Positions 13,152-54,316 of a DNA stretch of 57,531 nucleotides are shown in pieces. Source of the DNA: a virus. Its lineage: Duplodnaviria; Caudoviricetes. Both the position numbers and the translations under genes were made by a program. The notes under the pieces were generated by a model. That model was not told the origin of the DNA, did not search any database, and saw only the letters and a program-made list of their open reading frames with translations. Where the stretch lies: the IMG/VR virus record IMGVR_UViG_3300027777_000042, positions 1 to 57,531 of that record. The stretch is one strand, 5' to 3'. How positions within the stretch are numbered: position 1 is the stretch's first letter; each line of letters opens with the position of its first letter.

Positions 13152-13571
13152 TTAAATAAATGCTTTAATATCACGAGGATCACCAGTGACTTTACCAATG
13201 AGTTCATGATCATTGAAAAAAGTAAACAAGGCTTTACCCTTGGATCCATCTATTTCAAAATCAATCTCCCATCTATCTCCGCCCCACTTAGGTACACGAA
13301 CATAATCACCAACTTGTGCCCAAGCACCTTCAGGCCATGGATCCATACTTTCACGTTTTCTGAAAGCTAGTGGTCCTACTGCTAAGACCTTACCAATCAT
13401 GGTGTTCCATTTTTCGGTTTCTTTTGTTTCCTCAGGTAGCACAATCCCAGATGCAGTGACTTTATCTTTCACAGCACGGAGTTGAACCAGTACTCTAGCA
13501 CCATAAGGTGCCATTAAAGGATCAATAACGGGAAACGCTTCTTCAAGCGTTTGTTCGATATCATACGACAT
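13152..13571 (-). CDS. groES: Co-chaperonin GroES-like protein
   Basis: PYGARVLV...TASGIVLP...GKVLAVGP...VGDYV...NDHELIG matches the Cpn10 pattern. Confidence 0.85.
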   Translation of the reverse strand: MSYDIEQTLEEAFPVIDPLMAPYGARVLVQLRAVKDKVTASGIVLPEETKETEKWNTMIGKVLAVGPLAFRKRESMDPWPEGAWAQVGDYVRVPKWGGDRWEIDFEIDGSKGKALFTFFNDHELIGKVTGDPRDIKAFI

Positions 13572-16611: not shown

Positions 16612-19600
16612 TTAAGGTTGTTGTCTTAGTTCAATGTCTGTGGCGTGCTGTTCAAGAGCTCGAGCAAGTAGCTCACGTTGCGCAGGGTTAAAGACTCTCC
16701 AAGGTTGACCAGCACTATATTGTCGCGCCGTTTGCGCAATAGCTCTTAAATCAGTAGGGGTATTGGCATTGTTAGGATGCGCAACGCGAGCTGCGAACTC
16801 TCTTGCTTCATTGATTTCTCTTGTACTTAACTCGCCCTGTAAGTCTGCTAAAGCTGCAGTTTGAATACGACGAGGCAACACGTCGGCATTTGCAATGTGT
16901 TGTTGCACAGCTTCGGGTATTGGTGCTTGCTGTTCAAATTGCACATATGGGCCTAGGTGATCAATGGCTCTACGTAACATAGACAAGTAATCGTCGTACT
17001 CAGTGCGATTAATTCGTAATGCCTCAGGTGTTGACCTTACAATATCATTTCTTATATTAGTAAATCTATTTATTGCAGACTGCGCTATTTCACTTGGGGT
17101 ATACCCTTGGCCAAACATATTATTTGCCATGGTATTAACATGCTCAATGGCTGCCCCCATCATGCTATAACTGACAGGCGTAGTGGCAAGTTGCAAAGGC
17201 TCAGTATACGCTTGCGTAATTGCTGCATTAATGTTTTGCGGCTCAGGTGCTTGTGCAGGCTGATTAGCACCGTGCTGATTATCAACTTCCCAATCACCAG
17301 TATCCACATTAAGTCCCATGTTTTGCATAACTGTATCAACATGGCTTAGAGCTTCTTCTCTTTGTCTAGGCGTTAATTCCCATAAAGTACCGCGTTCTCT
17401 ATCTTCGATCTGCTCCAATAAGTCACGATAGCTTTCTTCAAGAATATTTTCAGGGTGCGAATCTATATTGTTATTTCTAAAAAATGCCTCAAGAAAGTCA
17501 ATCACAGGTGCAGGTAATGATGTTTGTACTGTTTCAATTTGGTACGCAGGATTTACGCCTAGTTCAGGCTGATTAGCGCCATGCTGATCATCAGGCTCCA
17601 ATAAATTAGGCGTTGCACGTCTGCTTTCATATGCTGCTAAAGCCAAATCTACACTCCGTATATGCTCATCAAGCATTTGAATGATTGGTGCCACATCTCT
17701 AGTACTCTGAATACCGTATGCAGGTAAGTCAATGTCATCGACATTAGTAATGCCATCAACATAGTGAGTTAAATGATCATGAATCCCTTGAAGTGATGCA
17801 TTTTCTGGTAGCACAGCTATTATATCGTTATATACTCTAACTGCTGCAGGATGATGTGCAATGTAAGCATTTGAAACACTTGCCATTGGTTGTCTATGTG
17901 CGTCTAAATCATGCTCATCAGCCAGCCTTGTCATCTCTTGAATTGCACTTTGTATAAACTGTCTTCTATCTGCTCCAGTAAGATTTCTAATTGTTGGATG
18001 ATCAAACACATCACTATGCAATGCATAAATTGTAGAGTCTACATTATCTATACCGCCGCGTATATTATCCTCAAAGATACTATTACCAAATAATGCACCT
18101 TGAAAACTTACACGCTGCAATTCTGTAGGTTCATTATTAGGTTGTGGTTCAGGCACGGGAAGTCTACGTTCTAATTCACGAGCCAATAACTCACGTTGCC
18201 GCATTGAAAAAGTACTATATGCATCATCACCTATTGCAGGCGTGCCTGTGCGAAGTGAATGTATTATGTTTGCAACTTCACGGTGGTCATAACTACCAAA
18301 AAGGTCATTAGCCAAAATATCAACTTCATTAGCTTGATGATCCCCCATTGCGTCGCGTAACCGTGTTGTAGGTGTATTTTGCATTCCTGCTATTACACGC
18401 TGCAATTCTGTAGGCTCACGATAAGGTTGTGCAGGTTGTTGTGCAGGTTGTTGTGCAAGTTGTTGTACAGGTTGTTGTTGCGCAGGGTCAGTACGATCTA
18501 AGTAATGCTGAAGCGCAGTTGCCACGCCTTCGCGGTCAAAACTAGTTCTTGTGCCGGCGAAATTAATACCACCTTGCAAAGTGCTTATAACTTGCTCTAT
18601 ACTTCTGCGCCCATGAGTGGGATTAGCATTACCGTTAATTATGGATGTTGCAACATCATGTATGGTCTCTACTGCGGCATCATTTAAATGCCCTAATAAA
18701 GGTATTTCTTGGCGTAACCCTGCAATATCAGGAAATTGATATGGCTGTATAGCTTGTTGTGCACCTTGTCGTTGCGGCATATTTTCATTTTGTAAAAAAT
18801 AATACTGCACGGCATCACTATGTGCTTCCAACATATGACCTAATTCAGCTAGTTCTGCATCAGTATTAAGATCATGGTCAGTTGGCGCAACACGACCATA
18901 ATTTATTTCATGTGTTGATGTGATTAATGACTGTTCTATATCTTCATTGTTTAGACCTTCATCATACAAATCTTGAAGATATCTTCTGTATGCTGTGTGA
19001 ATACGATAGTTATTAGTAGAAGCAAGAATATTAGGTATTGGTACTAATGGGTCACCGGCACCAATTAAATACCTAGCATTATTAGTCAACCCTGGGTGTT
19101 CTTGCTCTAACCGCCTAGTTAAGTTAATATGCCGTTGTGTGGCATCACGCATACGATCTTCTAAGTCATGGCGTGCATCTAGATAGTCTTCTTCTGATGG
19201 GAAATCATTCCTATCTAATTCATTTAAATCATCGTCTAATTGTCTTCTAGTTGCTTCCAACTCATGCAATCTATCATTATTGCCATGTTGACGTCTTACG
19301 GCAACCACAGATGCTGGAGGTGGATTATGATTCTTTAAGTCCATCAAATCTTCTTGTGTGACAAACCTAGGTAATCCATGCGCTTCTGAAGCAATCCTAA
19401 ACGCTTCTTCAGACATATTAGCTTTACCTGCTAAAAATCTAGCACTTAATGCTTTAGTGTCATACACACCAGATTTATCAGTCGTGTCCATGTTTCTGAT
19501 TTCGTCTGATTTAGCATTTAAATAATCACGAAGTGAATTTCTATATTGTGGGTCAATATCTTTATTGTGGTGTTGTGTTGCATAACCAATTTGATAAGTT

Positions 19601-21885
19601 TTCTTGCCTGATGCATCTTGCCGCATATCAGAAAATTCAACTAACCCAACAGGCATACCAGTTTTACTATCCCTTAGTGATCCAAATTTAGTATCACCAT
19701 TCATTGCATTACTAATAAACCCAGTGAGATTCTTTCTAGTTGTTTCAGAAAAACGTTTACCCCATGGGTTTTCTGCTGATTGTGTAGAAATATCTGTTAG
19801 TGGCAAGTAATTTCTTTCTGCGCCTGTGAATGTATGTTTATGTGATGGTCTATCAATACCTTTTGCAACACAATGGTCTAGTATTTCAGTTTCACCGCTT
19901 AACCAAAACTCAATCTCTTCTGGTGACATGTTGCTATCAATTTCTTTGACGTGTGCATTCCCAAAATGATTTTGTGGTGGTATTGTGCTTAAATCATCTT
20001 TGTAAATAGAACTGATTTTTTCTTTTCTTGCCACTAATGATTTTTTAGCTTCAAGTTCTTTAGCTATCCGTTCTTTAGTGACATCCCTAACAAGAGCATC
20101 GATGGGTGTTCTTGCCAATTCTTTTTCTGTCATCTTACCTGTTAACAAACGGTTGTATATTTCATCCCCGATTTGCTTAACGCCTAATCTGTGTAATGCA
20201 CCAGCTCTAACGTCATATACAGTTGTGTGTGGTTGAGTGTTAACAAGGTGCTCAAGTTGTGGGTAAAACTGACGCTCAGGTGGGGGAATCTTGCTCCACA
20301 TCTTTTCTGCTGTCATACCGCGCAATGCATCATCAGCCATGTTTTCATAGTTATGCGCAATCTTAAGGTTGTCCATATCAGTATGCGCACGCTGTAAAGC
20401 TGTGTTTACTTTTTCTAATGCTTTAATATTTTCTTTTGCACCTGGATATGTCATCGGTCTGGCATAACCTTCAGACACCGCTTGTTGGTGTAACTTATCT
20501 CTAGTCTCTTGGCGATCATCAGATTCTTTTTGCAACTTAGCGATTTCTTCTTGCTTTTTAACTATTTTAGGCGTAACCGTACCTAGTGGCATATTAGGGT
20601 TAAACTTGGTTCTTGCATGCTCAATATCTTCATTTGGTGTAGACATGCTTGCAAGATCATCACTTGCACGCATTGTAATGCCTTTTAATGCTTCATTTAG
20701 CAATGGATCTTTTTCAGTACCTAAATATTTTGAAATGTACTGCTTAAATGGGCCAGTTAATGCATTAACACCTTTTTGATGATTCTCAGCAAGTTGGTCA
20801 ACGCTGATTAAGCCATTTGCTGTTGCAAATTCATTCATCATGTTTTTCATGTAATCATCATGTTCTCGCCCAGGGTATTTATAATCAACAGCTCGTTCTG
20901 CATCATTAGCACTAAGATTTGGAAATTCTTCTTGTGCTTTTTGCCGTTTAAAATTTTCAAATGCTTCGTGGTGATTTTCGCCTATGACATGATACCTATA
21001 TAGTGCATTAGCACTGTCTTGATCAAGTACTGGACCGTACGGCAAAATATCCCTAATTACCTCATCCATACCGCCACGATCTAGACTGACTTTCTGTGTT
21101 GTCGCCGATAGCATTGGTGAACCTTCAGGTCTAACGGCATATAAATTAGTTCTAGGCTGTAATTCAGCGGGAATTCCTGGCACAGGTGGTAAACCTTGCA
21201 TTTGGCGTTTAGCCATAATGTCACCAATACTATCGGCAACACCTTGTGCTTTAACACCTAGTGTAGGTTCGCCCAGTATGTTTTGTTTTTGAATACCTGA
21301 TTGTGCATTCCTAAAATCTTGTGGTAAATCCCTTAACTCACCACCTACGATCTGAGCTTTACCAATAGCCGCTCTTACATCACTAGGCGACACTAAAGGT
21401 CTACGTTCTTCAAGCCCGGTCATATTACCAATAATGCCGCCTCTAGGTGACATTGGCAATATAGGAATGTCAGGTGCTTTTTTGGCTAAATAATCTTCAA
21501 AATTCTGGCCAAGCGGAGTTTGTGCAGGTTGCATGTGCATCTGATTAAACCTATTGGCTAAATCAGTTGCTGTGTTAAGACCTGTTCTGTTAACTTCACC
21601 TGTTTGTGCATAATTACTAATGTCATTAGCAACGTCAGGCACGGATCTAACAAGACCTTGTGCCGCACCAAGTGCACCAACAGCAGGGTTTATCACCGTA
21701 GTCCTTGCAAGATCCTGCAAAGACTTCATAACCATTAAAGGATTGTAGTTAGTGGCTACATGCTTTACTTTATTAATCGCTGAATGTAACGGGCTATTTC
21801 CACTAGGTTGTGCTAAAGGTTGATCTACAGGCGCATCGTCTTCATAACCGATTTGATTGCCCATTGCATCAGTTAGTATAGCCAT
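16612..21885 (-). CDS. Very large multidomain protein with a PcfJ-like region
   Basis: 1757 aa; E-x3-LDHCV...SLRD..G.P...VE pattern around 19540-19960; Q/P-rich linkers and repeated helical units. Confidence 0.55.
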   Translation of the reverse strand: MAILTDAMGNQIGYEDDAPVDQPLAQPSGNSPLHSAINKVKHVATNYNPLMVMKSLQDLARTTVINPAVGALGAAQGLVRSVPDVANDISNYAQTGEVNRTGLNTATDLANRFNQMHMQPAQTPLGQNFEDYLAKKAPDIPILPMSPRGGIIGNMTGLEERRPLVSPSDVRAAIGKAQIVGGELRDLPQDFRNAQSGIQKQNILGEPTLGVKAQGVADSIGDIMAKRQMQGLPPVPGIPAELQPRTNLYAVRPEGSPMLSATTQKVSLDRGGMDEVIRDILPYGPVLDQDSANALYRYHVIGENHHEAFENFKRQKAQEEFPNLSANDAERAVDYKYPGREHDDYMKNMMNEFATANGLISVDQLAENHQKGVNALTGPFKQYISKYLGTEKDPLLNEALKGITMRASDDLASMSTPNEDIEHARTKFNPNMPLGTVTPKIVKKQEEIAKLQKESDDRQETRDKLHQQAVSEGYARPMTYPGAKENIKALEKVNTALQRAHTDMDNLKIAHNYENMADDALRGMTAEKMWSKIPPPERQFYPQLEHLVNTQPHTTVYDVRAGALHRLGVKQIGDEIYNRLLTGKMTEKELARTPIDALVRDVTKERIAKELEAKKSLVARKEKISSIYKDDLSTIPPQNHFGNAHVKEIDSNMSPEEIEFWLSGETEILDHCVAKGIDRPSHKHTFTGAERNYLPLTDISTQSAENPWGKRFSETTRKNLTGFISNAMNGDTKFGSLRDSKTGMPVGLVEFSDMRQDASGKKTYQIGYATQHHNKDIDPQYRNSLRDYLNAKSDEIRNMDTTDKSGVYDTKALSARFLAGKANMSEEAFRIASEAHGLPRFVTQEDLMDLKNHNPPPASVVAVRRQHGNNDRLHELEATRRQLDDDLNELDRNDFPSEEDYLDARHDLEDRMRDATQRHINLTRRLEQEHPGLTNNARYLIGAGDPLVPIPNILASTNNYRIHTAYRRYLQDLYDEGLNNEDIEQSLITSTHEINYGRVAPTDHDLNTDAELAELGHMLEAHSDAVQYYFLQNENMPQRQGAQQAIQPYQFPDIAGLRQEIPLLGHLNDAAVETIHDVATSIINGNANPTHGRRSIEQVISTLQGGINFAGTRTSFDREGVATALQHYLDRTDPAQQQPVQQLAQQPAQQPAQPYREPTELQRVIAGMQNTPTTRLRDAMGDHQANEVDILANDLFGSYDHREVANIIHSLRTGTPAIGDDAYSTFSMRQRELLARELERRLPVPEPQPNNEPTELQRVSFQGALFGNSIFEDNIRGGIDNVDSTIYALHSDVFDHPTIRNLTGADRRQFIQSAIQEMTRLADEHDLDAHRQPMASVSNAYIAHHPAAVRVYNDIIAVLPENASLQGIHDHLTHYVDGITNVDDIDLPAYGIQSTRDVAPIIQMLDEHIRSVDLALAAYESRRATPNLLEPDDQHGANQPELGVNPAYQIETVQTSLPAPVIDFLEAFFRNNNIDSHPENILEESYRDLLEQIEDRERGTLWELTPRQREEALSHVDTVMQNMGLNVDTGDWEVDNQHGANQPAQAPEPQNINAAITQAYTEPLQLATTPVSYSMMGAAIEHVNTMANNMFGQGYTPSEIAQSAINRFTNIRNDIVRSTPEALRINRTEYDDYLSMLRRAIDHLGPYVQFEQQAPIPEAVQQHIANADVLPRRIQTAALADLQGELSTREINEAREFAARVAHPNNANTPTDLRAIAQTARQYSAGQPWRVFNPAQRELLARALEQHATDIELRQQP

Positions 21886-30037: not shown

Positions 30038-30237
30038 ACTGTCCACATTGTGGTGCTTGGAGTTTTGTAAATTACACTAAAATGCCTAGACGCAGAAGAG
30101 AATGCGCTAATGGACACAGGTTTACCACACAGGAAATATGTATTGATGATCAATTAAAAGAAGCAAAACTAACACGAATGCAAGTAGCAAAACTATTTCA
30201 AAAACGTAACTTAAAGGAAAAATCAAATGATGTATGA
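30034..30237 (+). CDS. NrdR-N-like zinc-ribbon protein
   Basis: MNCPHCG...RRRRECANGHRFTTQE. Confidence 0.7.
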   Translation: MNCPHCGAWSFVNYTKMPRRRRECANGHRFTTQEICIDDQLKEAKLTRMQVAKLFQKRNLKEKSNDV

Positions 30238-30628
30238 TAAAGTAAAAGAATTTAGACTTAAACTTAAACTGCCTGTATCAGATACACCGGCATTATTACA
30301 GCCAGAACACATGAGTTTTTATGCAAGATTTATCATGGAAGAATTAAGCGAACTTATGCGTGCACATGAAAAAGAAAACATGGTTGATGCTGCTGATGCA
30401 ATCACTGATTTAATTTATGTTGCAATGGGTTGTGCTCATCATATGGGTTTACCATTAGAACAGATTTTTAATGTGGTTCATGATGCTAACATGCAAAAAA
30501 CACCTGGTTCAACTAACCGTGGTGTACAACAAGATGCTCAAAAACCTGAAGGTTGGCAGGCACCTGAAGAAAAAATAAATAAAATTTTAAATAAATATTT
30601 GTTTACTTCCCATCAAACCATGGTATAA
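30227..30628 (+). CDS. MazG/PRA-PH-like all-alpha NTP pyrophosphohydrolase
   Basis: EELSEL...DAITDLIYV...VHDANMQK...KPEGW. Confidence 0.8.
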   Translation: MMYDKVKEFRLKLKLPVSDTPALLQPEHMSFYARFIMEELSELMRAHEKENMVDAADAITDLIYVAMGCAHHMGLPLEQIFNVVHDANMQKTPGSTNRGVQQDAQKPEGWQAPEEKINKILNKYLFTSHQTMV

Positions 30629-30912: not shown

Positions 30913-31407
30913 ATGAATATATTTTTCTTACATCGTGTTCCTAACATTGCCGCACTTTACCATTGCGACAAACATGTAGTTAAAATGATTCTAGAATCAG
31001 GTCAACTACTTGCCACATGCCATCACGAATATGGCAATCCAGTTACATGGAAACCAACACATAAAAATCACCCTAGTGCTGTTTGGGTTCGTCAATCCAG
31101 ACTACATTATGACTATGTTAATGCACTTGGTCGTTGTTTATCCAAGGAATTTTATCGTAGGTATGGTCATCATCATAAATCAAGTCAATTGTTTAATGGC
31201 GAATTAGCATATGCACCTAAGCCTATGTATTCAATGCCTTTAACATGGCAAGATCCTCCGCAATGTATGCCTGATGAATGTAAACACGAAGATGCTGTAA
31301 CAGCTTATCAAACTTACTATCGGCATAAAAAGTCTATCATGTCCATGGTATGGTACAAAGGTCAAAATCATTTTACGCCACGTTTTATGGAGTCAGCAAA
31401 TGTCTAA
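30913..31407 (+). CDS. Pyrimidine-dimer DNA glycosylase-like (DenV/Pyr_excise family)
   Basis: MNIFFL...HCDKHVVKMILESGQLL...THKNHPSAVWVR...PPQCMP...AYQTYY. Confidence 0.7.
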   Translation: MNIFFLHRVPNIAALYHCDKHVVKMILESGQLLATCHHEYGNPVTWKPTHKNHPSAVWVRQSRLHYDYVNALGRCLSKEFYRRYGHHHKSSQLFNGELAYAPKPMYSMPLTWQDPPQCMPDECKHEDAVTAYQTYYRHKKSIMSMVWYKGQNHFTPRFMESANV

Positions 31408-31864
31408 TCAGCACAAATGGGATATGCGGTATCTTAATTTAGCTAAGTTAGTTTCAACTTGGTCTAAAGATCCATCTACAAAATGTGGTGCTGTTATTGT
31501 TAACCAGCACAATGAAATTATTAGTGTTGGGTTTAATGGTCTGCCTAAACTTGTCACTGATAACGAGGAAAGGTTGACAAATCGTGACATTAAGTTGAAA
31601 ATGATAATTCATGCAGAAAGAAATGCTATTATTTTCGCTAAAAAAGATCTTAGGAATTGCACAATTTATACATATCCAATGATGGCTTGTAGTGAATGTG
31701 CAGCAATGATCATTCAGGCTGGATTTAGTCGCCATGTTTCCATGTTAAGCCCAAATAAGCATTGGCAAGATTCATGGAAAATTGCAGGCGAAATGTTTGA
31801 TGAAGCTGGTATGGTTGTGGATATCTATACAAAGTCAGAATTGGAGAATGAAAATGTTGATTAA
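31400..31864 (+). CDS. dCMP deaminase
   Basis: SKDPSTKCGAVIV, GFNG, HAERNA, CSEC zinc motifs. Confidence 0.9.
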   Translation: MSNQHKWDMRYLNLAKLVSTWSKDPSTKCGAVIVNQHNEIISVGFNGLPKLVTDNEERLTNRDIKLKMIIHAERNAIIFAKKDLRNCTIYTYPMMACSECAAMIIQAGFSRHVSMLSPNKHWQDSWKIAGEMFDEAGMVVDIYTKSELENENVD

Positions 31865-32237: not shown

Positions 32238-32975
32238 ATGTCTAAAAATCAAGTTGCATTATTCGAAAACGAATTGGAAAAAATGGCTCAAGCTTCTTTG
32301 GAGGCTGAAAAAGGTAGTGCAGGAATTACATTCCTTAGCACTAAAGGTGGCATACTAACTTACAAGGATAATCCTATTGCAGGTAATAGCCTTGAGGTTG
32401 TTGTTATTGCCTCACCTGTTGAAAGGCTTTACTATACAGCTCGTTACGATCCTACAAAGCCTGCAGGTCCTGTGTGTTTTGCCTTAGGTCAAACCATGAC
32501 TGGTTTAAAGCCTAATGTTAACTCAGAGCAAAAACAGTCTGACACTTGTGCTAACTGCCCTAAAGATCAATGGGGTAGTTCAACAACAGGTGGTAAAGGT
32601 AAAGCTTGTGCTGAAAAACGTAGACTTTTAATCGTGACAGCAGATTCCATCGGTTCTATTGATGCAGTTAATATGGCTGAAGTTGCAGCATTACGAGCAC
32701 CAGTGACCTCAGTAAAAGCATTTGCTGTTTATTTGCAAAAGATTGCTAATGCAGTTAAACGTCCACTTTCAGCAGTGGTTACTAAAATTAGTCTTGTGCC
32801 TGATCCAAAAACACAATTCAAACTTGAATTTGATTTTGTTCGTGCAATTGATGATGTTGAAATCATTAAAGCTTTAATCACTAGAGGTGAAAAAGAAATG
32901 ACTAATGCAGTGGAAACTGCTGGTATTGATGATGGTGAAACCACAAATGCCGTTTCTCAGTCAACAAAGTATTAA
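32238..32975 (+). CDS. Putative ssDNA-binding/annealing protein with Cys4 site
   Basis: PVCFA...CANCPKDQWGS...GKACAEKRRL, acidic tail, directly upstream of the polymerase. Confidence 0.55.
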   Translation: MSKNQVALFENELEKMAQASLEAEKGSAGITFLSTKGGILTYKDNPIAGNSLEVVVIASPVERLYYTARYDPTKPAGPVCFALGQTMTGLKPNVNSEQKQSDTCANCPKDQWGSSTTGGKGKACAEKRRLLIVTADSIGSIDAVNMAEVAALRAPVTSVKAFAVYLQKIANAVKRPLSAVVTKISLVPDPKTQFKLEFDFVRAIDDVEIIKALITRGEKEMTNAVETAGIDDGETTNAVSQSTKY

Positions 32976-32976
32976 G

Positions 32977-34797
32977 ATGTCTGATCCTATCTTCCTAGAC
33001 TTTGAAACGGAAGCAATCGGTCCTAGACCTAAATTTTACCCACCAAAACCTGTTGGTTTAGCGGTATTAGATAGGTCTGGACAATTTCAATCCGGTTATT
33101 TTGCATTTGCACATGACACAGGTAATAACTCTAGCTTTAAAGCAGTTAGAGATATTCTTGTGCAGATCTATGAAAGTGGTAGACATATTTGTTTTCATAA
33201 TGCCATGTTTGATATGGCAGTTATTATGGAACATTTTGATCTACCATTTCTTAATCCTATGCGTGTTGAAGATACTTTGGTGTTAGCCTTTTTATATGAT
33301 CCATATGTAAGAAGTTTAGCACTAAAAGAACTTTGTAAGGAATGGTTAGGTGTTCAACCAGAAGAACGTGATGAGCTATTTGAGTGGCTTATTGCTAATA
33401 TTCCTGAAGTTAAAAAGAAACCTAAACAAGCTGGTGCATTTATTGCGCGTGGTCCTGCACAATTGGTTGGTAAATATGCAAATGCAGATGTAAGACTAAC
33501 AGCATTGTTGTATGACTTTACACGTGAAGTACAAGCTACAATGTCCGATGCTTATATTCGTGAAATAACATTGATGCCAATTTTACTTGAAAATTCTAAA
33601 CTTGGTGTTCGTGTTGATCGTGATGGAATGCTTGAATGTCAAACACAGTCATTACATGATATTGGATTATGCGAACAATGGCTTAATACATATTTCAATG
33701 TTTCAGAAATCAATTACAACTCAGGTCAGCAATTGGTTGATTTAATTCAAACCAAAGGTTGTTTTTATGATAATAAACGTTGGCCAAAGAGTGATAAAGG
33801 CACATTACTATCCGATAAAGAAACACTAAAAGACATGATTACCGATGAAGTTCTTGTAACTGTACTTCGGTATCGTGACTTATTGGTTAAACTTAATGGA
33901 ACATATATTGAGCCATGGTTGGAACAGTCAGCATTTAATGGTAGGATTTACACTGAATGGAATACTGTTAGAGGTGAAGTTGGTGGCACAAGAACTGGTA
34001 GATTATCAGCCAAACCAACACTTCAGACTATGCCAACCAAGGAACCTCAGTCTAAACTACCGCCTGAATTGCAAAGTGTTGTATTACCTAGAGTTAGGAA
34101 ATACATACTTCCAGATGAAGGTGATGTGGTTGTTTCAGTGGATTTCCAAGCACAGGAACTTAGACTATTTGCACACTTTGAGGATGGTAAATTAGCAGCA
34201 CAGTACCGTAAAGACCCTAAAGCAGATCTACATGCATTTGCAGCAGGTATTATGTCTGAAAAAGCTGGTAGACCTATCATTAGGGATTATGCAAAGGTTA
34301 TGTCATTTGGCATATTGTATGGTGCAGGGCCTAAAAAGATCAGTGAAATGCTAGGTATTCCATACCCTGAGGCAAAGAACTTAATTGACTTGTACAAGAC
34401 TGAAGTTGCACCTGGTCTTGACAAGATCAATAATGATTTAACCAATAGGTATAGACTTCGTGCACCATTTACCACTATTGGTGGTAGATTGGTGAAAGGT
34501 GAACCACCTAAATTTATCAACGGCAAAATGATGGAATTCGGATTTAAGTCATTAAACACATTGATTCAAGGTTCCGGCGCTGATATGAATAAGAAAGCTA
34601 TGATTGACTATTACAAAACAGCCAAAGATAGCAGACTTCTTTTATCATTACATGATGAACTAATCATTTCAGTCAGAGAAGAGCATGCAGAACGTGAAGC
34701 TGAAAACTTAGCTAATTGCATGCTTAATTGCTTTAAATTAGATGTCCCATTAATTGCTGAACCAAAAATCGGCCGTAACTTTGCAGAGATTAAATAA
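32977..34797 (+). CDS. polA: Family A DNA polymerase with 3'-5' exonuclease (start corrected to MSDPIFLDFET)
   Basis: ExoI DFETE, ExoII HNAMFD, ExoIII YANAD; TRTGRLS; motif A DFQAQELR; motif B AKVMSFGILYG; IQGSGAD; motif C LHDE. Confidence 0.95.
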   Translation: MSDPIFLDFETEAIGPRPKFYPPKPVGLAVLDRSGQFQSGYFAFAHDTGNNSSFKAVRDILVQIYESGRHICFHNAMFDMAVIMEHFDLPFLNPMRVEDTLVLAFLYDPYVRSLALKELCKEWLGVQPEERDELFEWLIANIPEVKKKPKQAGAFIARGPAQLVGKYANADVRLTALLYDFTREVQATMSDAYIREITLMPILLENSKLGVRVDRDGMLECQTQSLHDIGLCEQWLNTYFNVSEINYNSGQQLVDLIQTKGCFYDNKRWPKSDKGTLLSDKETLKDMITDEVLVTVLRYRDLLVKLNGTYIEPWLEQSAFNGRIYTEWNTVRGEVGGTRTGRLSAKPTLQTMPTKEPQSKLPPELQSVVLPRVRKYILPDEGDVVVSVDFQAQELRLFAHFEDGKLAAQYRKDPKADLHAFAAGIMSEKAGRPIIRDYAKVMSFGILYGAGPKKISEMLGIPYPEAKNLIDLYKTEVAPGLDKINNDLTNRYRLRAPFTTIGGRLVKGEPPKFINGKMMEFGFKSLNTLIQGSGADMNKKAMIDYYKTAKDSRLLLSLHDELIISVREEHAEREAENLANCMLNCFKLDVPLIAEPKIGRNFAEIK

Positions 34798-36507: not shown

Positions 36508-36905
36508 TGCTTGAGAGACAACTTGAGCGTTTTTTCAGTCAAGAATGCAAAAGGCTTAATATTGCAACCATTAAATTGCATTTACGCTTTTCAACAGGAT
36601 GGCCAGATCGTTTGATCATCTTAAACAAAAAAGTATGGTGGATAGAACTTAAAACTTTAACTGGTTCACTTAGTCCTAGACAACATGCAGTTCATGACAC
36701 ACTAAAAAGTCTAAACCACAAAGTACTTGTACTAAGAACAAAAGAGGAAATCACAAATGTATTGGAATCCGCATCCTTATCAAATGAAAGCAGTTCAGTT
36801 TCTAGTCGAAAACGGATCAGGTCAACTGTGGCTGGATCCAGGACTAGGAAAGACAAGTATAACATTACAGGCATTGAAGATCTTGAGGGCGGCAAAAGCA
36901 ATTAA
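36507..36905 (+). CDS. VRR-NUC domain nuclease
   Basis: LERQLE...GWPDRLII...IELK...LSPRQ. Confidence 0.8.
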   Translation: MLERQLERFFSQECKRLNIATIKLHLRFSTGWPDRLIILNKKVWWIELKTLTGSLSPRQHAVHDTLKSLNHKVLVLRTKEEITNVLESASLSNESSSVSSRKRIRSTVAGSRTRKDKYNITGIEDLEGGKSN

Positions 36906-38130
36906 CAAAGTGCTTATTCTTGCGCCATTAAGACCAACATATGCTGTTTGGCCTGAAGAAATCAATAAGTGGGATAACTTTAATGATTTAACTATTAGTA
37001 TTTTGCATGGGCCAAATAAAGATCATCGACATGGTGATAAGTCTTTTATCCATGTTATTAATTTTGAAGGTCTACAATGGTTAGCTAAAAAGAATCATTT
37101 CCCATATGATGCTTTAATTGTTGATGAAATAAGCTATTTAAAAAATACTAGAACAGAACGGTTTAAAGCACTTTCACCAATGCTAAATAACTTTAAGCGT
37201 AGATTCGGTTTAACTGGTTCACCTGCACCAAACAGTCTAATGGATGTGTTTGGACCACAATTAGTTATTGACCGTGGTGCAACATTTGGTAAGTACATTA
37301 CACATTTTAGAACAGCATATTTCCATCCAACTGGATACGGTGGCTATGAATGGGCGTTAAAGGTAAATGCCGATAAAGAAATATATGAAAAACTTGCAAA
37401 TAAAGTTTTACGTATGAAAGCAGAAGACTATCTTGACATGCCTGAGCTAATTACAAATAAAGTCCATGTAACTTTACCTGCAAAAATAAAAGTTATGTAT
37501 AAACAATTAGAAGATAAATTGCTATTGGATATTAATGACAATAAAGTTACAGCATCCACGGCTGCAGTTGCCGTCGGAAAATGTCAGCAAATAGCTAATG
37601 GTGCAATTTATCTAGATGGTGAAGATAAAGACATACAAATTTTACATGATGAAAAAATAAACGCAGTTTTAGAACTTATTGAAGGTATGAATGGCAAACC
37701 ATGTTTAATTGGTTATCATTTTAGACATGATTTAATTAGATTACAAAAAGCTTTTCCTAATGCACCATTTATTGGATCAGGTATTACAGGAAAAGAAATG
37801 CAAACAATTATTGATGATTGGAATCAGGGTAAACATCCAGTTTTACTAGCACATCCGCAAAGTGCTGGTCACGGATTAAACCTACAAGGTTCTGGTCATG
37901 CAGTTATATGGTTTAGCAATACTTGGTCCTTGGAAATCTATGAACAGTTTATCCGACGTTTATGGCGCCAAGGACAGAGGAATAACATAATTGTTCATCA
38001 AGTTATTGCTAAAGATACTATTGATGAAGCTATCGTTGCAGCCACAAGCCGTAAAGATAAATCGCAACAAGCTTTGATGAATGCCATTAAAGACTATGCG
38101 AATAGAGAAACTATTTTAGAAATAAGTTAA
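36757..38130 (+). CDS. SNF2-family helicase
   Basis: PHPYQ, DPGLGKT, IVDEIS, LTGSP, GHGLNLQ, RLWRQGQ. Confidence 0.9.
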   Translation: MYWNPHPYQMKAVQFLVENGSGQLWLDPGLGKTSITLQALKILRAAKAINKVLILAPLRPTYAVWPEEINKWDNFNDLTISILHGPNKDHRHGDKSFIHVINFEGLQWLAKKNHFPYDALIVDEISYLKNTRTERFKALSPMLNNFKRRFGLTGSPAPNSLMDVFGPQLVIDRGATFGKYITHFRTAYFHPTGYGGYEWALKVNADKEIYEKLANKVLRMKAEDYLDMPELITNKVHVTLPAKIKVMYKQLEDKLLLDINDNKVTASTAAVAVGKCQQIANGAIYLDGEDKDIQILHDEKINAVLELIEGMNGKPCLIGYHFRHDLIRLQKAFPNAPFIGSGITGKEMQTIIDDWNQGKHPVLLAHPQSAGHGLNLQGSGHAVIWFSNTWSLEIYEQFIRRLWRQGQRNNIIVHQVIAKDTIDEAIVAATSRKDKSQQALMNAIKDYANRETILEIS

Positions 38131-38533: not shown

Positions 38534-38995
38534 ATGAAACCCATAAGTCGACAACCTCGTGTTTATATTGCAAGTCCATTCTTTAATCCGTATGAAGTAT
38601 CTATCATAGAACAAATTAAAGATGTACTAGCTAAAAATGCATTAACATTTTTCAGCCCTAAGGATGATATGTTATACAACCCGGACACAATGAAACCTGC
38701 TGATGTGTTAAAGGTTAACATTGATGCATTGTACTCAACTGATTTAACTGTTTGTGTCACCGATGGAAAAGATCCTGGTACATTATTTGAAGCAGGTTGG
38801 TGTTATGCTCAAGGTGTACCTATTATTTATGTGTGGCTAACCGGTAAAAAAGATCAAAAGTTTAATTTAGTCCTTGCTGCATCTGGTGCAGTTGTCCGCT
38901 CAATTAACCAATTGGATATAGCCATTAAAGAAATCAAGCAGTCAGGTGCATTTGAACTTAAAGTATGGGATGATAAGGAGATTAAGTATGAGTAA
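38534..38995 (+). CDS. Nucleoside 2-deoxyribosyltransferase / nucleotide N-glycosidase family protein
   Basis: VYIASPFF, FSP, DGKDPGTLFEAG (catalytic Glu), NLVL motifs. Confidence 0.85.
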   Translation: MKPISRQPRVYIASPFFNPYEVSIIEQIKDVLAKNALTFFSPKDDMLYNPDTMKPADVLKVNIDALYSTDLTVCVTDGKDPGTLFEAGWCYAQGVPIIYVWLTGKKDQKFNLVLAASGAVVRSINQLDIAIKEIKQSGAFELKVWDDKEIKYE

Positions 38996-39155
38996 GACCA
39001 AACAAGAAGTCAGGGATGAAATCAATGAATTGTATGGCGCAATAATGGCATTAGGTACAGCTATGCAGCATATACATGACTTGCAGACAGAAAAAACAAA
39101 ACAAATGTTTGCATTAAATCAAATGATTAAAGATATGAAAGATCATGATGAATGA
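38988..39155 (+). CDS. Small coiled-coil protein (start corrected to MSKTKQ)
   Basis: AAGGAG RBS before the ATG at 38988. Confidence 0.55.
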   Translation: MSKTKQEVRDEINELYGAIMALGTAMQHIHDLQTEKTKQMFALNQMIKDMKDHDE

Positions 39156-39660
39156 ACAGTATGAAAAGTTCTTCATGGATAGTTATACATTAGAGCACAC
39201 AAAGCGGTACAGTATGAAACCTGTACTGCTACAAGAAAGTGTGGCAACACATAGTTATTTTGTGGCTTTAGCTGTATTACTACTCCGTAATGACTATAAG
39301 TTTGACGTGGATAAGGCAATTAAGATTGCTTTGTGCCATGACTTACCTGAGATGTATATATCTGATGTAAACCATATGGTCAAGAAGCAGTTTCCTAATG
39401 TTGCTAAAGCATTAAAAGAAGCTGAAGAACAAATTGCCAATGATATGCCATGGCATGTTTCAATGTGGATTAGGGAATATAACTCAGACACACCAGAAGC
39501 CTTGGCAGTACATTATGCTGATGCACTACAATGTAAGCAATATGCTGACAATGAAATTCAACTGGGGAACCAGGGATACATGACTGATGTGTACCGTAAT
39601 AGTTGTAGAAGACTATACGAACTTGAGCAAAAACTTAAACCTTATAAGGTGGTTCCATGA
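39145..39660 (+). CDS. HD-domain phosphohydrolase (YfbR/DatZ-like)
   Basis: KRY...ESVATHS...LCHDLPE...SDV...ADAL. Confidence 0.85.
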   Translation: MMNEQYEKFFMDSYTLEHTKRYSMKPVLLQESVATHSYFVALAVLLLRNDYKFDVDKAIKIALCHDLPEMYISDVNHMVKKQFPNVAKALKEAEEQIANDMPWHVSMWIREYNSDTPEALAVHYADALQCKQYADNEIQLGNQGYMTDVYRNSCRRLYELEQKLKPYKVVP

Positions 39661-40082
39661 CAACGACAGATCAAATTTTACAACAGAGAGGCGCAATTTA
39701 CGGTGATTTTTTTGAAGGGATAACATTGGAATCAAACGTTCTTAATGAAATATGTGTTAGGTATGAATCACATCATGGTGAATCATTACCTATGGAGTAC
39801 TATTTATTCTTTTCAAAGATCGTTATGAAATTATCTAGGCTGGCCATCACACCAGACCATATAGATAGTTGGGTAGATATTGCAGGTTATGCAAGGTTAG
39901 TAGAAATTCATTTAACAACACTTCAAGGGGAAAATAATGCCAAAAGTCAACAAAGATCAGATGCCGAATCTACAGAAGATGCACACGGAGATCAAATTTC
40001 ACAAGAAACCGGATCCGATAAACTTCATGAACCAACTAGAAAATATCAACGTAAAGATAGTGGGAGCACCATCGATACCTGA
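39657..40082 (+). CDS. DUF6378-like protein (putative all-alpha dNTP diphosphohydrolase relative)
   Basis: ILQQRGAIYGDF...KLSRL...HIDSWVDIAGYARL. Confidence 0.7.
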   Translation: MTTTDQILQQRGAIYGDFFEGITLESNVLNEICVRYESHHGESLPMEYYLFFSKIVMKLSRLAITPDHIDSWVDIAGYARLVEIHLTTLQGENNAKSQQRSDAESTEDAHGDQISQETGSDKLHEPTRKYQRKDSGSTIDT

Positions 40083-40860
40083 ATTTAGAAAGATTATTGC
40101 AGTATTCTTAATGAATACATGGAATGATAAACTTCAGTACACATTTGCCGAAGAAGATATTGACCAAACTATTGATGAATTGTTTAGGTTTGAATTGCTA
40201 CCAACTGCAATGGAAACCATTAATATTACATGGACAGTTAATGGCATGGATATGGTAGATACCACCCATTTAATTCGCCATAGACTATTTAGCTTTTCAG
40301 CTCAAGTCTGTAGTGATAGAGATATGCGTGATGACAATGTGATGGTTAAACCTTCAATCATGGCTAATAAGGATTTCTATGAACGTTACCAAAGCATTAC
40401 TAATGCAGCTCGTGATCTTTATATGGATATGCTTGATAGCGGTGAAGTCCATGGCCTTGATGCTCGCACTATTATGCCTAGGAATTTTGAACATTTTTAT
40501 ATGGTTCGCTGTACTATTAAAGATCTTATGGGATACTGCATTATGCGTGGTGATGAACAAATCCAAACCACGGTAGATAATGTCATTGCAATGAAGTTAT
40601 GGCTTGAAGTATTGAAGATCTATCCATTCCTTAAAGGATTAGTGGACTTCAGAAAACCAGATGCTTTCTATCAAAAACAATGTGGTAAAGGTAAAACAAA
40701 TATATTCCCACCAAACGCAAAGAATGACAACTTTAACTGGTGTGAAGAACAATTTGTTTACAAACGGCCTAGAGATGAATTTCCAGGCAGTGATTCTTAC
40801 TTACAAATCCGTGAGTTTTTATTAGCACAAATGGATGCTATTGAAAAGAGATACGTATGA
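39937..40860 (+). CDS. thyX: Divergent ThyX-fold flavin-dependent enzyme
   Basis: THLIRHRLFSFS, LYMDMLDSG...ARTIMP, MRGDEQIQ; signature Ser displaced and N-terminal His motif altered. Confidence 0.75.
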   Translation: MPKVNKDQMPNLQKMHTEIKFHKKPDPINFMNQLENINVKIVGAPSIPEFRKIIAVFLMNTWNDKLQYTFAEEDIDQTIDELFRFELLPTAMETINITWTVNGMDMVDTTHLIRHRLFSFSAQVCSDRDMRDDNVMVKPSIMANKDFYERYQSITNAARDLYMDMLDSGEVHGLDARTIMPRNFEHFYMVRCTIKDLMGYCIMRGDEQIQTTVDNVIAMKLWLEVLKIYPFLKGLVDFRKPDAFYQKQCGKGKTNIFPPNAKNDNFNWCEEQFVYKRPRDEFPGSDSYLQIREFLLAQMDAIEKRYV

Positions 40861-41105
40861 AACGATGGTATGAATGTGAAAAGAAGCTTAAAACGTTTAA
40901 GCAACGTGAACGTAGAAGACTCTTCCATGAGTTCAAACGTCAATATGCAGAAAACTGGGCTGATGTCACACTTCATCCATTGTATGACGTAGTAGTCAAT
41001 TTAAAAAGACAAATGGAAGTTGCTGAATTTTATGATATGCATAAACAGTCACTTAACAGAAGTGTGAAAGTCTATAAACAATATTTAGAAAGTATATATG
41101 GATGA
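40857..41105 (+). CDS. Hypothetical basic protein
   Basis: 82 aa, ATGA-coupled to the thyX-like gene. Confidence 0.55.
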   Translation: MKRWYECEKKLKTFKQRERRRLFHEFKRQYAENWADVTLHPLYDVVVNLKRQMEVAEFYDMHKQSLNRSVKVYKQYLESIYG

Positions 41106-41250
41106 AGCAATAATCAAAAAAACTTACAATGACTGGGTGGAATTACTTAAGCGTTCAAACAATGAAGATATGCTTAATGATCCATATTCCATATGGTATG
41201 AAGCATTTCATGTGGCAACTATCTTAATCGAAAGAAAAAATGACGCCTAA
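41098..41250 (+). CDS. 50-aa hypothetical protein (not in ORF track)
   Basis: MDEAIIKKTYNDWVELLKRS...ERKNDA fills the gap and overlaps both neighbours. Confidence 0.55.
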   Translation: MDEAIIKKTYNDWVELLKRSNNEDMLNDPYSIWYEAFHVATILIERKNDA

Positions 41251-41920
41251 GATAGGTATCTTTACACCATTACATGGTAGACCTGATTTTGCTAGAATGG
41301 TGGCAATGCAGTTTGCATTTCAGACTGTATTGCCAACACATGTAGCATTTTATCAAAATGGCCCATTTGAAAATTATCAATGGGCTATCAATGATCTTAA
41401 ATTGCCATACCGATATGACTGGATTTACAATGGCACAACTGATAAACATCAAGAAAATTGGTATGGTATACCATTAAAAATGCTGCTTAGTTATGATTGC
41501 GATTATTATTTTTGGTGCGACCAAGATGATATCTATCAGTCAGATCATATTTCAAATAGTATAGCAGACTTAATTCTTAATGATGCAGATATTGTGCTAA
41601 ATAGCTTAGGTGGCTTATTAAAAGTAAATAGCAAAAACTTTACTTATGAAGTAACTAGATTCAAAGCGCATGACCCAGATGGTATTAGCTCATCTATGGC
41701 ATTTAATAAACGGTTTGCTAAAGAGTTGTACATTGACTTGTATAAAAATTTAGATACTGTGGCTCATTTTTGGGCTGATAATGTGGTAAGCCGAGAAACT
41801 ATGCCTAAGTTTAAAGTGTATCGTAATCCTACAAGGCATACAGTAACGTATCTATGCCATAACGGAACTACTTCATCGGCACATTGGTTAGAAGATTTAC
41901 CGCCAGTAAAAACTAATTAG
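41240..41920 (+). CDS. GT-A (family 2-like) glycosyltransferase
   Basis: KIGIFTPLHGRP, YFWCDQDDIY (DxDD), WAD, terminal H motif. Confidence 0.7.
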   Translation: MTPKIGIFTPLHGRPDFARMVAMQFAFQTVLPTHVAFYQNGPFENYQWAINDLKLPYRYDWIYNGTTDKHQENWYGIPLKMLLSYDCDYYFWCDQDDIYQSDHISNSIADLILNDADIVLNSLGGLLKVNSKNFTYEVTRFKAHDPDGISSSMAFNKRFAKELYIDLYKNLDTVAHFWADNVVSRETMPKFKVYRNPTRHTVTYLCHNGTTSSAHWLEDLPPVKTN

Positions 41921-53683: not shown

Positions 53684-54316
53684 TTAAGAATCCTGTGCAA
53701 TGGTTTGACGATCACCTAAACGAAGTAAGTCTTCTGCTTTTAGTGAATCCATGGCTTCTCTATACTTCTCCTGAAATATTTGCCGTTGATCGTTTTTAAG
53801 GAATGGCATGGCTTGAAGCAACGTGCCATATAACATAGCATTAGGTGCATTTTGTGTGAGCCAATTGGTTTGATTATCGGAAGCTAATGGCTGTATTCTT
53901 TCATAATACAACACTTCAAATGTGTATGCTTGATCAGGTGTTGGTGCAACTAACCAATGCTGATAGTCGTAATCGGCATAATAGACTGGTGTTGCTTGTG
54001 TCGTTGAACTGGAAGCATATGTTCGTAAATACTCATACTTCCTAAGAAATATTGGTGCAATTACACCATTGTTTGTCAAATTAATTGATACTGTTTTACG
54101 CCATCTTGCAGGTTTAGGTATGACAGGATTTCCTGCAACCATAACAGACTCAACTACTTGTTGTTGACCTAATGTCTTAACCTGCTGGGCTATTTCAAAT
54201 TCGCATAAAGTAATAAATGTAGGAACTTGTGCAACAGTGGCTGCATCATTCCGCTCTAAATACTGTAGGACTGTTGATGTTAAATTATCATACGTAAGAG
54301 CAAACGAAGCGGTCAT
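53684..54316 (-). CDS. Putative tail adaptor (tail tubular protein A-like)
   Basis: TYDNL...FITLCE...APTPDQAY...TNWLTQNAPNAMLYG. Confidence 0.6.
   Translation of the reverse strand: MTASFALTYDNLTSTVLQYLERNDAATVAQVPTFITLCEFEIAQQVKTLGQQQVVESVMVAGNPVIPKPARWRKTVSINLTNNGVIAPIFLRKYEYLRTYASSSTTQATPVYYADYDYQHWLVAPTPDQAYTFEVLYYERIQPLASDNQTNWLTQNAPNAMLYGTLLQAMPFLKNDQRQIFQEKYREAMDSLKAEDLLRLGDRQTIAQDS

Follow-up and report, generated by a model that had tools for sequence, protein, structure and literature searches.

Does the ThyX-like gene of an uncultured tailed phage still encode a thymidylate synthase, or has its product left that reaction for another one? The gene occupies positions 39937-40860 on the plus strand of the IMG/VR virus record IMGVR_UViG_3300027777_000042, a genome of 57,531 bases with an estimated completeness of 95%, which was analysed at its full length and is referred to as the window. 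ThyX is a textbook enzyme and a drug target, and an earlier note on this DNA had proposed that the active-site motifs of the phage protein are remodelled in such a way that FAD binding is kept and substrate or chemistry has changed. Judging from the sequences compared here, the gene and its relatives, which form a clade, probably encode a working flavoenzyme of the ThyX fold that has departed from plain thymidylate synthesis. We lean, by a modest degree, towards a neofunctionalised ThyX whose product, a modified pyrimidine nucleotide, would enter phage DNA synthesis.

The open reading frame (ORF) begins with an ATG at 39937 that is preceded, at a distance of 6 nt, by the Shine-Dalgarno-like sequence aagggga, and its N-terminus (MPxNN...) is conserved in distant relatives. 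The length of 307 amino acids given in the earlier note thus stands, against 277 amino acids in the source gene call for this protein (P0002). The Pfam model Thy1 (PF02511) matched residues 71-230 with 52.4 bits (gathering cut-off 24.8) and scored 53.5 bits in a six-frame search. The ThyX equivalog model TIGR02170 (NCBIfam, EC 2.1.1.148) was failed with 37.9 bits versus a cut-off of 87.9; a canonical ThyX copy residing with a clade gene in another virus (L113:2121-2753) passes the same model with 103.5 bits. An AlphaFold (AF2) model computed on the clade alignment reached a predicted local distance difference test score (pLDDT) of 95.7 and a predicted template modelling score (pTM) of 0.91. 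In a Foldseek search with this model, chain 3gwc_B was matched with E = 2.2e-11 and a template modelling (TM) score of 0.68 by target, and the top matches among those listed were ThyX or PolB. VIA-align superposed 211 residues on M. tuberculosis ThyX (3gwc_B; Z 17.1, root-mean-square deviation 3.0), followed by T. maritima ThyX (1o26_B; Z 16.0), PolB (Z 15.9, 200 residues aligned) and 2cfa_A (Z 13.3). All matches with Z of at least 13 were ThyX or its paralogue PolB, and unrelated entries had Z values of at most 6.0. The window protein is approximately 16% identical to canonical ThyX structures, and hhalign aligned the profiles of the clade and of canonical ThyX over 197 columns (probability 99.8%, identity 21%). 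By profile and by predicted structure, the product of ORF 39937-40860 is a ThyX-fold protein.

The ThyA model PF00303 found no match anywhere in the window record, and the fold of the protein is that of ThyX. Membership in the ThyA family was judged by the catalytic Cys146, the specificity residue 177 and residue 169, following rules in PMC13326640. The likeness to ThyA-family pyrimidine hydroxymethylases and hydroxylases that is drawn below is claimed in role, not in family. A two-copy model with FAD gave an ipSAE score of 0.64 (median of three runs) versus 0.00 for the best control, a pass that may reflect likeness to solved ThyX oligomers; of 30 proteins solved as pairs, 20 attained this mark, as did 1 of the 23 with single-chain structures. 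At least 93% of the contacts were common to the runs, and the pLDDT of the partner was at least 89. The predicted dimer interface comprises residues 3-19, 113-117, 125-127, 174-183, 250-258 and 267-283. The active-site motifs sit at this ThyX-like interface in the model, although the pass may reflect nothing but the likeness.

Residue conservation was determined from an alignment of 42 clade sequences (A1) that was compared with a canonical ThyX alignment (A5), and from a close set of the 120 nearest cluster representatives (61-100% identical). At the place of the canonical GHxSxxEH motif, both hhalign (A1 versus A5) and MAFFT aligned the block ELLPTAMET (residues 86-94, 40192..40218), in which both histidines are lost (Leu87 and Thr94 in the window), with Thr90 and Glu93 kept. 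The first of these histidines, His53 of T. maritima, stacks on the folate; PDB titles among the structure matches name H53A and H53D mutants. The loss of His opposite LPTAMET, as described in the earlier note, applies to the whole clade: His was found at position 87 in one and at position 94 in two of the 42 rows, versus an invariant G52-H53 in A5. Within the same block, Pro89 is present in 40 and Glu93 in 35 rows.

The next motif, THLIRHR...AQVCSDRD (40264..40323), keeps the RxR and has, by the column counts in A1, a remodelled substrate loop. RHR occupies residues 114-116, the beginning of RHRLFSFSAQVCSDRD (residues 114-129, nt 40276-40323); Arg114 was found in all 42 clade rows, Arg116 in 38 and the middle His115 in 26. 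The canonical Gln ahead of RHR is replaced in the clade by a near-invariant His111. Behind RHR, the canonical Ser at a distance of seven residues with its following x-Arg-Tyr (A5 consensus SYSQxSQRY) was not found. An ungapped profile alignment places Val124, Cys125, Ser126 and Asp127 at the canonical S-Q-R-Y places, with the conserved Asp127 and Arg/Lys128 two residues later. Position 124, immediately before the window's Cys125, is Cys in 32 of 42 clade rows and Val in the window; position 125 is Thr in 22, Ser in 14, His in 4 and Cys in a single row; position 126 is Gly in 29, Ala in 6, Asp in 5 and Ser in one; Asp127 is present in 37 rows, and Arg or Lys occupies position 128 in 33. The RHR-x9-S spacing with a Cys just before the Ser, which the earlier note had singled out, is literally present in the window but is no feature of the family: the loop reads RHRLFSFAAQVHGDR (VHGDR) in 95 of the 120 close relatives and VCSDR in 2. 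Cys125 and Ser126 are private to the window's own sub-lineage, and the shifted Ser and new Cys consequently lose their value as an argument for changed chemistry.

Two further blocks carry the remaining arginines. Asp175-Ala176-Arg177 (40459..40467) aligns to the canonical EDARYxLP block and is present in 39, 40 and 41 of the 42 clade rows, respectively; the block MRGDEQIQTTVDN (40543..40581), which begins with MRGDEQIQTT (residues 203-212, nt 40543-40572), aligns to the canonical LRLCxRAQWEIR. Arg177 and Arg204 correspond to Arg141 and Arg168 of A5. The phosphate-binding EDAR arginine is R147 of T. maritima, and the base-polarising arginine of LRxxxxAQ is R174. The third motif is QRxDxQIQPxSDN throughout the clade, in line with the alteration that had been read from the window sequence alone; the catalytic-type Arg204 is kept (41 of 42), QPxSDN is clade-specific, and Gln210, Asp214 and Asn215 were counted in 37, 38 and 36 rows. 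As these motif changes are conserved across dozens of clusters at 50% identity, they are not due to chance. All strings quoted in the earlier note lie in the translation of 39937-40860 (+), inside 40190-40590.

The clade also has two extensions of its own. The N-terminal one (MPxNN..., residues 1-35, 39937..40041) precedes the canonical rows, which begin near query residue 37, and its residues 3-19, conserved in distant clade members, belong to the predicted dimer interface. The C-terminal one (residues 236-307, 40642..40857; pLDDT 96-98) is absent from most canonical rows, contains the invariant Pro259 (42 of 42) and contributes residues 250-258 and 267-283 to the predicted interface. In summary of the alignment columns, the arginines and the acidic or polar residues by which canonical ThyX binds FAD and the phosphate and base of the nucleotide are kept in the clade. 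The retention of the flavin and nucleotide arginines, asserted earlier from one sequence, extends through the clade (Arg114, Arg116, Arg177 and Arg204). Continued FAD binding is suggested by the ThyX fold together with the conserved Thr90, Glu93, Arg114, Arg116, Asp175-Ala176-Arg177, Arg204 and Gln210, and is made less certain by the variable middle His of RHR.

An exhaustive phmmer search of 1.84 billion representatives yielded 198 proteins with E ≤0.001, 75 with E ≤1e-10 and 34 with E ≤1e-30; full-length members have approximately 290-350 amino acids. In a quick maximum-likelihood tree, for which support was calculated as the Shimodaira-Hasegawa-like approximate likelihood ratio (SH-aLRT) only, the 42 clade rows and seven intermediates (49 in total) stand on one side (SH-aLRT 98), and the canonical representatives together with eight co-resident canonical copies on the other (SH-aLRT 97). 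Among cellular genomes (one for each of 185,579 species), three clade matches were obtained, all on contigs of metagenome-assembled genomes. When the window protein and two distant members were used as tblastn queries against 50,697 phage records, one cultured carrier was found, Geobacillus phage GR1, the homologue of which is deposited as 'FAD-dependent thymidylate synthase'; Acidianus rod-shaped virus 1 gave a weak partial match to one of the three queries. In IMG/VR, contigs with a clade gene span 4 to 236 kb. By these searches and the tree, the clade is a near virus-only, distinct branch of the ThyX family. No paper describing the clade or its gene module was found in a literature search that left supplementary tables of the cited papers outside, and none was found on phage GR1. 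Two members carry additional domains: P0122 (515 amino acids) has a C-terminal HNH/His-Me homing endonuclease, and P0146 (551 amino acids) an N-terminal domain with a match to family 2 glycosyltransferases (GT2) below threshold (22.1 versus 23.3 bits).

For the analysis of gene company, 80 close loci from the lineage of the window (75-96% identical) and 80 diverse loci (43-63% identical to P0133) were compared with 80 control loci around canonical viral ThyX genes; at the level of whole records, 50 clade records were compared with 50 records carrying canonical viral ThyX. Locus searches were run with the alignment subsets A2, A3 and A5, and searches with the single proteins P0138 and P0150 found no relatives. 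The clade gene is intact in all 160 fetched loci.

A second gene of a thymidylate synthase family was detected in 16 of the 50 diverse clade viral records. Canonical Thy1 proteins with 120-182 bits are co-resident in 14 of them; the PF00303 cut-off was exceeded in three of the 50, among which G031 (211 bits) and G034 (249 bits) are the two further records with a ThyA. In 13 of 80 loci the second synthase gene is on the same strand at a distance of no more than 6 kb. Three genes of this kind coexist in one virus (G002/L084), where a canonical ThyX is accompanied by the clade gene and, immediately after the latter, by a ThyA relative that is closest to the CMP hydroxymethylase MilA (2.3e-15). 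More generally, a short ThyA-superfamily ORF directly follows the clade gene in 12 loci of a 45-kb phage family (L083:7002-7598 and 11 more, L084-L098). These ORFs, of about 180-217 amino acids (302 in L084), were placed in the ThyA superfamily by PHROGs and Pfam; they retain a His-Cys pair together with an RSCD...D pattern, and the residue in the position of ThyA Asn177 is Asp. An Asp at this place marks cytosine-specific members. Asn177 is a substrate-specificity residue of ThyA according to PMC13326640. The counts of these ORFs rest on a seed-only model, for which 10 of the 12 loci served as seeds, and on Pfam and PHROGs; a count of 28 of 80 loci from an iterated hidden Markov model (HMM) was discarded for profile drift. 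One ORF gathered by that model, L120:11779-12702, has as its sole match to a solved structure, over its N-terminal part, the uncharacterised B. subtilis prophage protein YorR.

A regular companion of the clade gene encodes a protein of the nucleoside 2-deoxyribosyltransferase family. In the window this partner has 153 amino acids (38534..38995, +) and matches PF05014 with 47.6 bits (cut-off 28.8). Its nearest solved structures are true transferases (1s2d, 5e-7; 6evs, 5e-6), ahead of CMP hydrolases (0.014-0.6). The partner's DPGTLFEAG aligns to the catalytic Glu motif of 1s2d, and of 106 unique partner sequences, 105 contain the pattern D.G[TS]..E.G. Among the 80 close loci, 70 have a deoxyribosyltransferase gene on the same strand no more than 6 kb away; in each of the other 10, under 2.8 kb separate the ThyX-like gene from the upstream border of the locus as fetched, leaving little or no upstream sequence. 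Such a gene is likewise present in 67 of the 80 diverse loci, where it stands upstream or downstream in several gene orders. Around canonical viral ThyX, the partner HMM gave a single weak match in 80 loci and phmmer none. Since the partner HMM had been built from clade partners, the linkage was determined again with Pfam: PF05014 was exceeded in 46 of the 50 clade records versus 2 of the 50 canonical viral ThyX records.

Other enzymes of nucleotide metabolism accompany the pair. A gene for an HD-domain YfbR-like protein was found in 75 of 80 close and 36 of 80 diverse loci. In lineages that lack it, a non-homologous nucleotidase of the NT5C/haloacid dehalogenase (HAD) type often adjoins the clade gene; in some lineages this nucleotidase carries a fused dUTPase_2 domain. 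Recurrent neighbours of the clade gene also include all-alpha NTP pyrophosphatases and Tmk-like kinases. In phages of approximately 45 kb that encode a DNA polymerase III (Pol III) alpha subunit, a Tmk-like P-loop kinase is fused to the deoxyribosyltransferase (307-348 amino acids), two genes upstream of the clade gene (L083:4567-5490, L086:4216-5163, L093:4388-5434 and L103:4485-5429). An NDP-sugar epimerase gene lies near the clade gene in 23 of 80 loci. An alpha-glucosyltransferase-like gene (phrog_2888) was rejected as a general partner, being confined to the GR1 lineage (4 of 50 records, including GR1). The cluster in L084 contains, at L084:2246-2620, a protein matching the N-terminal domain of dATP/dGTP diphosphohydrolases (PF18909, 97 bits), together with genes for a uracil-DNA glycosylase, a Tmk-like kinase, the deoxyribosyltransferase, the HD protein, the clade ThyX-like protein and the MilA-like protein.

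The deoxyribosyltransferase subtype of the window is rare among phages, with matches (E ≤0.001) in 13 of the 50,697 phage records, among them Yersinia phage YerA41, its relative GN1 and Listeria phage LIS04. The DNA of YerA41 contains heavily glycosylated thymidine as analysed by mass spectrometry (PMC13697223), and YerA41_081 appears as the thymidylate synthase of this phage in Table 1 of PMC12686479. This protein of 387 amino acids, deposited as hypothetical, scored 24.1 bits with Thy1, just below the cut-off of 24.8; its gene lies 2.3 kb upstream of the deoxyribosyltransferase gene, and a MazG-like gene and a HAD deoxyribonucleotidase gene follow. In LIS04, classed as Thornevirus SP15, genes for an HD/phosphodiesterase-domain protein, a double deoxyribosyltransferase and a 371-amino-acid 'ThyX' (LIS04_124), a ThyX-like protein that lacks an RxR motif, form a group beside the DNA polymerase gene. 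The partner HMM scored 61 bits in YerA41 and 105 bits in LIS04, in each case 0.6-2.3 kb from the long ThyX-like gene. For the Thy1-family protein gp130 of phage SP-15, a function as hydroxymethyluridylate synthase has been proposed in print (PMC5977210).

The clade profile did not assign these proteins to the clade: a membership of the YerA41 protein was rejected, and so was a kinship of SP-15 gp130, because A1 run over the whole SP-15 record matched gp9 alone, and weakly (14.3 bits). As the ThyX-like proteins of YerA41 and LIS04 fall outside the clade, the pairing with a deoxyribosyltransferase has arisen, or been kept, with separately divergent ThyX branches. Two annotations in these phages deserve mention. 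YerA41_086 (L253:9001-9537), deposited as 'mannosyltransferase', belongs to the deoxyribosyltransferase family (PF05014, 52.2 bits), and LIS04_121 (L254:6980-7945; 321 amino acids) has two tandem deoxyribosyltransferase domains and lies 570 nt upstream of the ThyX-like gene LIS04_124.

In the mechanism that we propose for the clade, the enzyme would still bind reduced flavin and a nucleotide of the deoxyuridylate type. This dUMP-type substrate would be supplied by the phage dCMP deaminase and modified at C5 to a product other than dTMP. A first guess for this product is 5-hydroxymethyl-dUMP, which could be formed by hydration, rather than reduction, of the exocyclic methylene intermediate; a bolder alternative would be a folate-free, O2-dependent 5-hydroxylation that makes use of the flavin. 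The NTP pyrophosphatase, the HD or HAD 5'-deoxynucleotidase, the deoxyribosyltransferase-family enzyme and, in other lineages, the Tmk-like kinase would constitute a pool-editing cassette. Its task would be to clear away the canonical nucleotide that competes with the new one and to hand the latter on, as DatZ, MazZ and DmtZ do in the service of PurZ. The stronger statement, that the clade is the first ThyX-fold family making a non-thymine DNA pyrimidine precursor (5-hydroxymethyl-dUMP or, given the loss of the folate-stacking His, a 5-hydroxy-pyrimidine nucleotide by a folate-free flavin/O2 reaction), is offered more tentatively; we put it slightly below an even chance.

Compared with ThyX proper, also named flavin-dependent thymidylate synthase (EC 2.1.1.148; TM0449, M. 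tuberculosis ThyX, PBCV-1 A674R), the clade has the fold, the Thy1 domain, the RxR, the DAR and the catalytic-type Arg in common, and its predicted interface is ThyX-like. It differs in the missing His pair of GHxSxxEH, in His111 for the Gln before RHR, in a (C)xGD(R/K) loop for Ser-x-Arg-Tyr, in approximately 35 extra N-terminal and 70 extra C-terminal residues, and in being virus-only and deoxyribosyltransferase-linked. The polyoxin biosynthesis enzyme PolB of Streptomyces cacaoi, a C5-methylase of UMP and dUMP (4p5a/4p5b), is structurally alike to the same degree as ThyX. It has no special sequence kinship to the clade (2.9e-7 in a PDB profile search, below actinobacterial ThyX entries) and is a cellular enzyme of an antibiotic pathway, whereas the clade is viral. 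We know of no deoxyribosyltransferase partner of PolB. It is described as the sole ThyX paralogue known to have left thymidylate synthesis (PMC5954106).

Pre-replicative pyrimidine replacement in phages by ThyA-family enzymes (SPO1-type dUMP hydroxymethylase, the T4 dCMP hydroxymethylase gp42, the RB69/DLP3 5-hydroxy-dCMP synthase) resembles the clade in its gene company: genes for dCMP deaminase, NTP pyrophosphatase, nucleotidase and kinase, joined in some lineages by glycosyltransferase genes. The enzymes themselves have the unrelated ThyA fold, in contrast to the ThyX fold of the clade, and to our knowledge no ThyX-fold enzyme has been shown to perform pyrimidine replacement. According to PMC12686479, the usual source of 5-hydroxymethyl-dUMP is a variant thymidylate synthase that receives its substrate from a dCMP or dCTP deaminase. 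Flavin-using ThyA homologues make 5-hydroxy-dCMP, and an enzyme of that superfamily can thus switch both cofactor and chemistry (PMC13326640). The Z cluster of 2-aminoadenine phages (PurZ, the HD protein DatZ, the MazG-like MazZ and DmtZ) has the same accessory families around a nucleotide-synthesising core. There, the deoxyribosyltransferase-family enzyme DmtZ hydrolyses dAMP and moves the deoxyribose 5-phosphate onto a new base, working alongside HD and MazG-type enzymes (PMC12884076). In the clade the core is ThyX-like instead of PurZ, and the deoxyribosyltransferase of the window is closest to nucleoside transferases. No gene resembling PurZ or adenylosuccinate synthetase was found among the window ORFs scanned, and a 2-aminoadenine reading of the HD, MazG-like and deoxyribosyltransferase genes was rejected on this ground. 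YerA41_081, LIS04_124 and SP-15 gp130 are, like the clade proteins, long members of the ThyX family, and the first two stand with the same deoxyribosyltransferase subtype, YerA41 in the company of MazG-like and HAD deoxyribonucleotidase genes and LIS04 with its HD/phosphodiesterase-domain gene upstream; all three belong to different, separately divergent branches.

The strongest rival to a neofunctionalised ThyX is an ordinary dTMP synthase, which would convert dUMP with methylenetetrahydrofolate (CH2-H4folate) and NADPH in a fast-evolving viral lineage, with the cassette salvaging host deoxynucleotides and uracil to dUMP and dTTP. We regard it as a serious contender whose chance nevertheless stays clearly under one half. 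Several of the results weigh for it and against the reading we prefer. Thy1 is exceeded, the fold is that of ThyX, and the equivalents of the RxR, DAR and Arg204 residues are conserved; the arginines that polarise and hold dUMP are just what a plain synthase would need. The window record has no other gene of a thymidylate synthase family in spite of its completeness, so that the ThyX-like gene is the sole one, and the dCMP deaminase in the window is what normally accompanies a genuine thymidylate synthase. An ordinary route to dTTP would equally account for the combination of a dUTPase-type pyrophosphatase, Tmk and ThyX. Of the 16 clade records with a completeness of at least 90%, just two (G025 and G031) had a clear second synthase and the other 14 had none, and GR1, with its deposited annotation as a thymidylate synthase, has no PF00303 gene. 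The partner is closest to true nucleoside transferases, and the phage is AT-rich (GC content across the window 0.34-0.47). The linkage counts, furthermore, are not independent: 49 of the 80 diverse loci have a common Pol III alpha gene, and part of the deoxyribosyltransferase association is thus cassette inheritance. The lineage of the window has no conserved DNA glycosyltransferase or kinase, and genomes of this phage type are easily assembled from many metagenomes, whereas the sequencing of strongly hypermodified genomes is reportedly difficult (PMC13697223). Finally, the clade profile gave 18 bits with LIS04_124, 9 bits with YerA41_081 and nothing with SP-15 gp130, which places the ThyX-like proteins of these three phages outside the clade, and their activities are putative.

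Against an ordinary synthase speak the presence of a canonical ThyX or ThyA alongside the clade gene in 16 of 50 records, frequently within one gene cluster, the failure at the TIGR02170 cut-off that a co-resident copy passes, and the clade-wide loss of both canonical histidines. The deoxyribosyltransferase link is nearly absent from canonical viral ThyX records (2 of 50), and the near absence of the clade from cellular genomes would be odd for a synthase of the housekeeping type. For the change of substrate or chemistry proposed in the earlier note, the TIGR02170 result, the second synthases, the linkage (46 versus 2 of 50 records) and the virus restriction are all in favour, and all of them are indirect. 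A ThyX-fold protein that binds nucleotide or flavin without catalysis, for instance as regulator or scaffold of a nucleotide-synthesis complex, appears very improbable. It would accommodate the variable middle His of RHR (26 of 42), the S/R loop that is not in canonical form and the related long ThyX-like LIS04_124 devoid of any RxR. It is at odds with the invariance or near-invariance of Arg114, Arg116, Asp175, Arg177, Arg204, Gln210, Asp214 and Asn215, with the intact gene in every one of the 160 loci, and with the position of the active-site motifs at the predicted interface, as in active ThyX.

If the neofunctionalised ThyX is real, widespread uncultured phages would possess an undescribed route to modified DNA pyrimidines. 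If the stronger statement on a non-thymine precursor also holds, an abundant uncultured freshwater phage type of 57 kb, together with several other lineages including GR1, would carry thymine (or cytosine) that is partly or fully replaced, and the linked deoxyribosyltransferase would act like DmtZ, destroying or rebuilding the canonical dNMP. Its pairing recurs with independently divergent ThyX-like genes in phages with hypermodified thymidine, and the clade enzyme would give a candidate for the unassigned first step of hypermodification of the YerA41 and SP-15 types. Should the protein be a plain synthase instead, it would show that ThyX can dispense with histidines that are regarded as necessary for handling the folate. 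The question is testable, given a cultured carrier (GR1) and a small protein with a high-confidence model.

In the window, the ThyX-like gene belongs to a replication and nucleotide module that extends over approximately 28.3-41.9 kb of the plus strand; structural and lysis genes are on the minus strand. The module includes a MazG/phosphoribosyl-ATP pyrophosphohydrolase-type nucleotide pyrophosphohydrolase (30227..30628; PF01503, 62.9 bits; phrog_671, 1.1e-24) and the dCMP deaminase, the likely source of dUMP (31400..31864; PF00383, 64.8 bits; phrog_174, 6.7e-38). These are followed by DNA polymerase I (32905-34797), a PD-(D/E)XK exonuclease and a helicase (36757-38130), all on the plus strand. 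Between the deoxyribosyltransferase gene and the ThyX-like gene lie, again on the plus strand, two ORFs. The first encodes the HD-domain YfbR/HDDC2-like hydrolase of the 5'-deoxynucleotidase type (39145..39660, 171 amino acids; HD_3, 63.8 bits; YfbR-like, 55.1 bits), with phrog_7076 'dATP triphosphohydrolase' as its best PHROG (9e-15) and HDDC2 as a PDB match (1.8e-5). The second (39657..40082; DUF6378, PF19905, 30.3 bits) shares 146 nt with the beginning of the ThyX-like gene and is kept in 80 of 80 close and none of 80 diverse loci. Its homologue in the relative L027 has 92 amino acids and overlaps the ThyX-like start by just 8 nt. In view of this short homologue, the long low-complexity tail of the window's DUF6378 ORF that overlaps the ThyX-like gene may be non-functional as a protein.

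Directly after the ThyX-like gene, a small plus-strand ORF of 82 amino acids (40857..41105) without a family match in Pfam and PHROG scans occurs in 78 of 80 close and none of 80 diverse loci. The plus-strand ORF at 41240-41920 (226 amino acids) likewise had no Pfam or PHROG match and resembles family 2 glycosyltransferases of the GT-A fold in the ESM Atlas (feature score 0.99, structural TM 0.87). It was rejected as a conserved partner, with 0 of 160 loci; being missing from the 96%-identical L002 and from L027, this ORF, with which the nucleotide module ends, is an insertion specific to the strain. A kinship with the GT2-like N-terminus of P0146 was also rejected (BLASTP, E = 1.8). In the structural arm on the minus strand, a GroES-like Cpn10 (35 bits) is encoded at 13152-13571 and an ORF of 1757 amino acids at 16612-21885, and an SU10-type adaptor at 53684-54316 suggests a podovirus-like virion.

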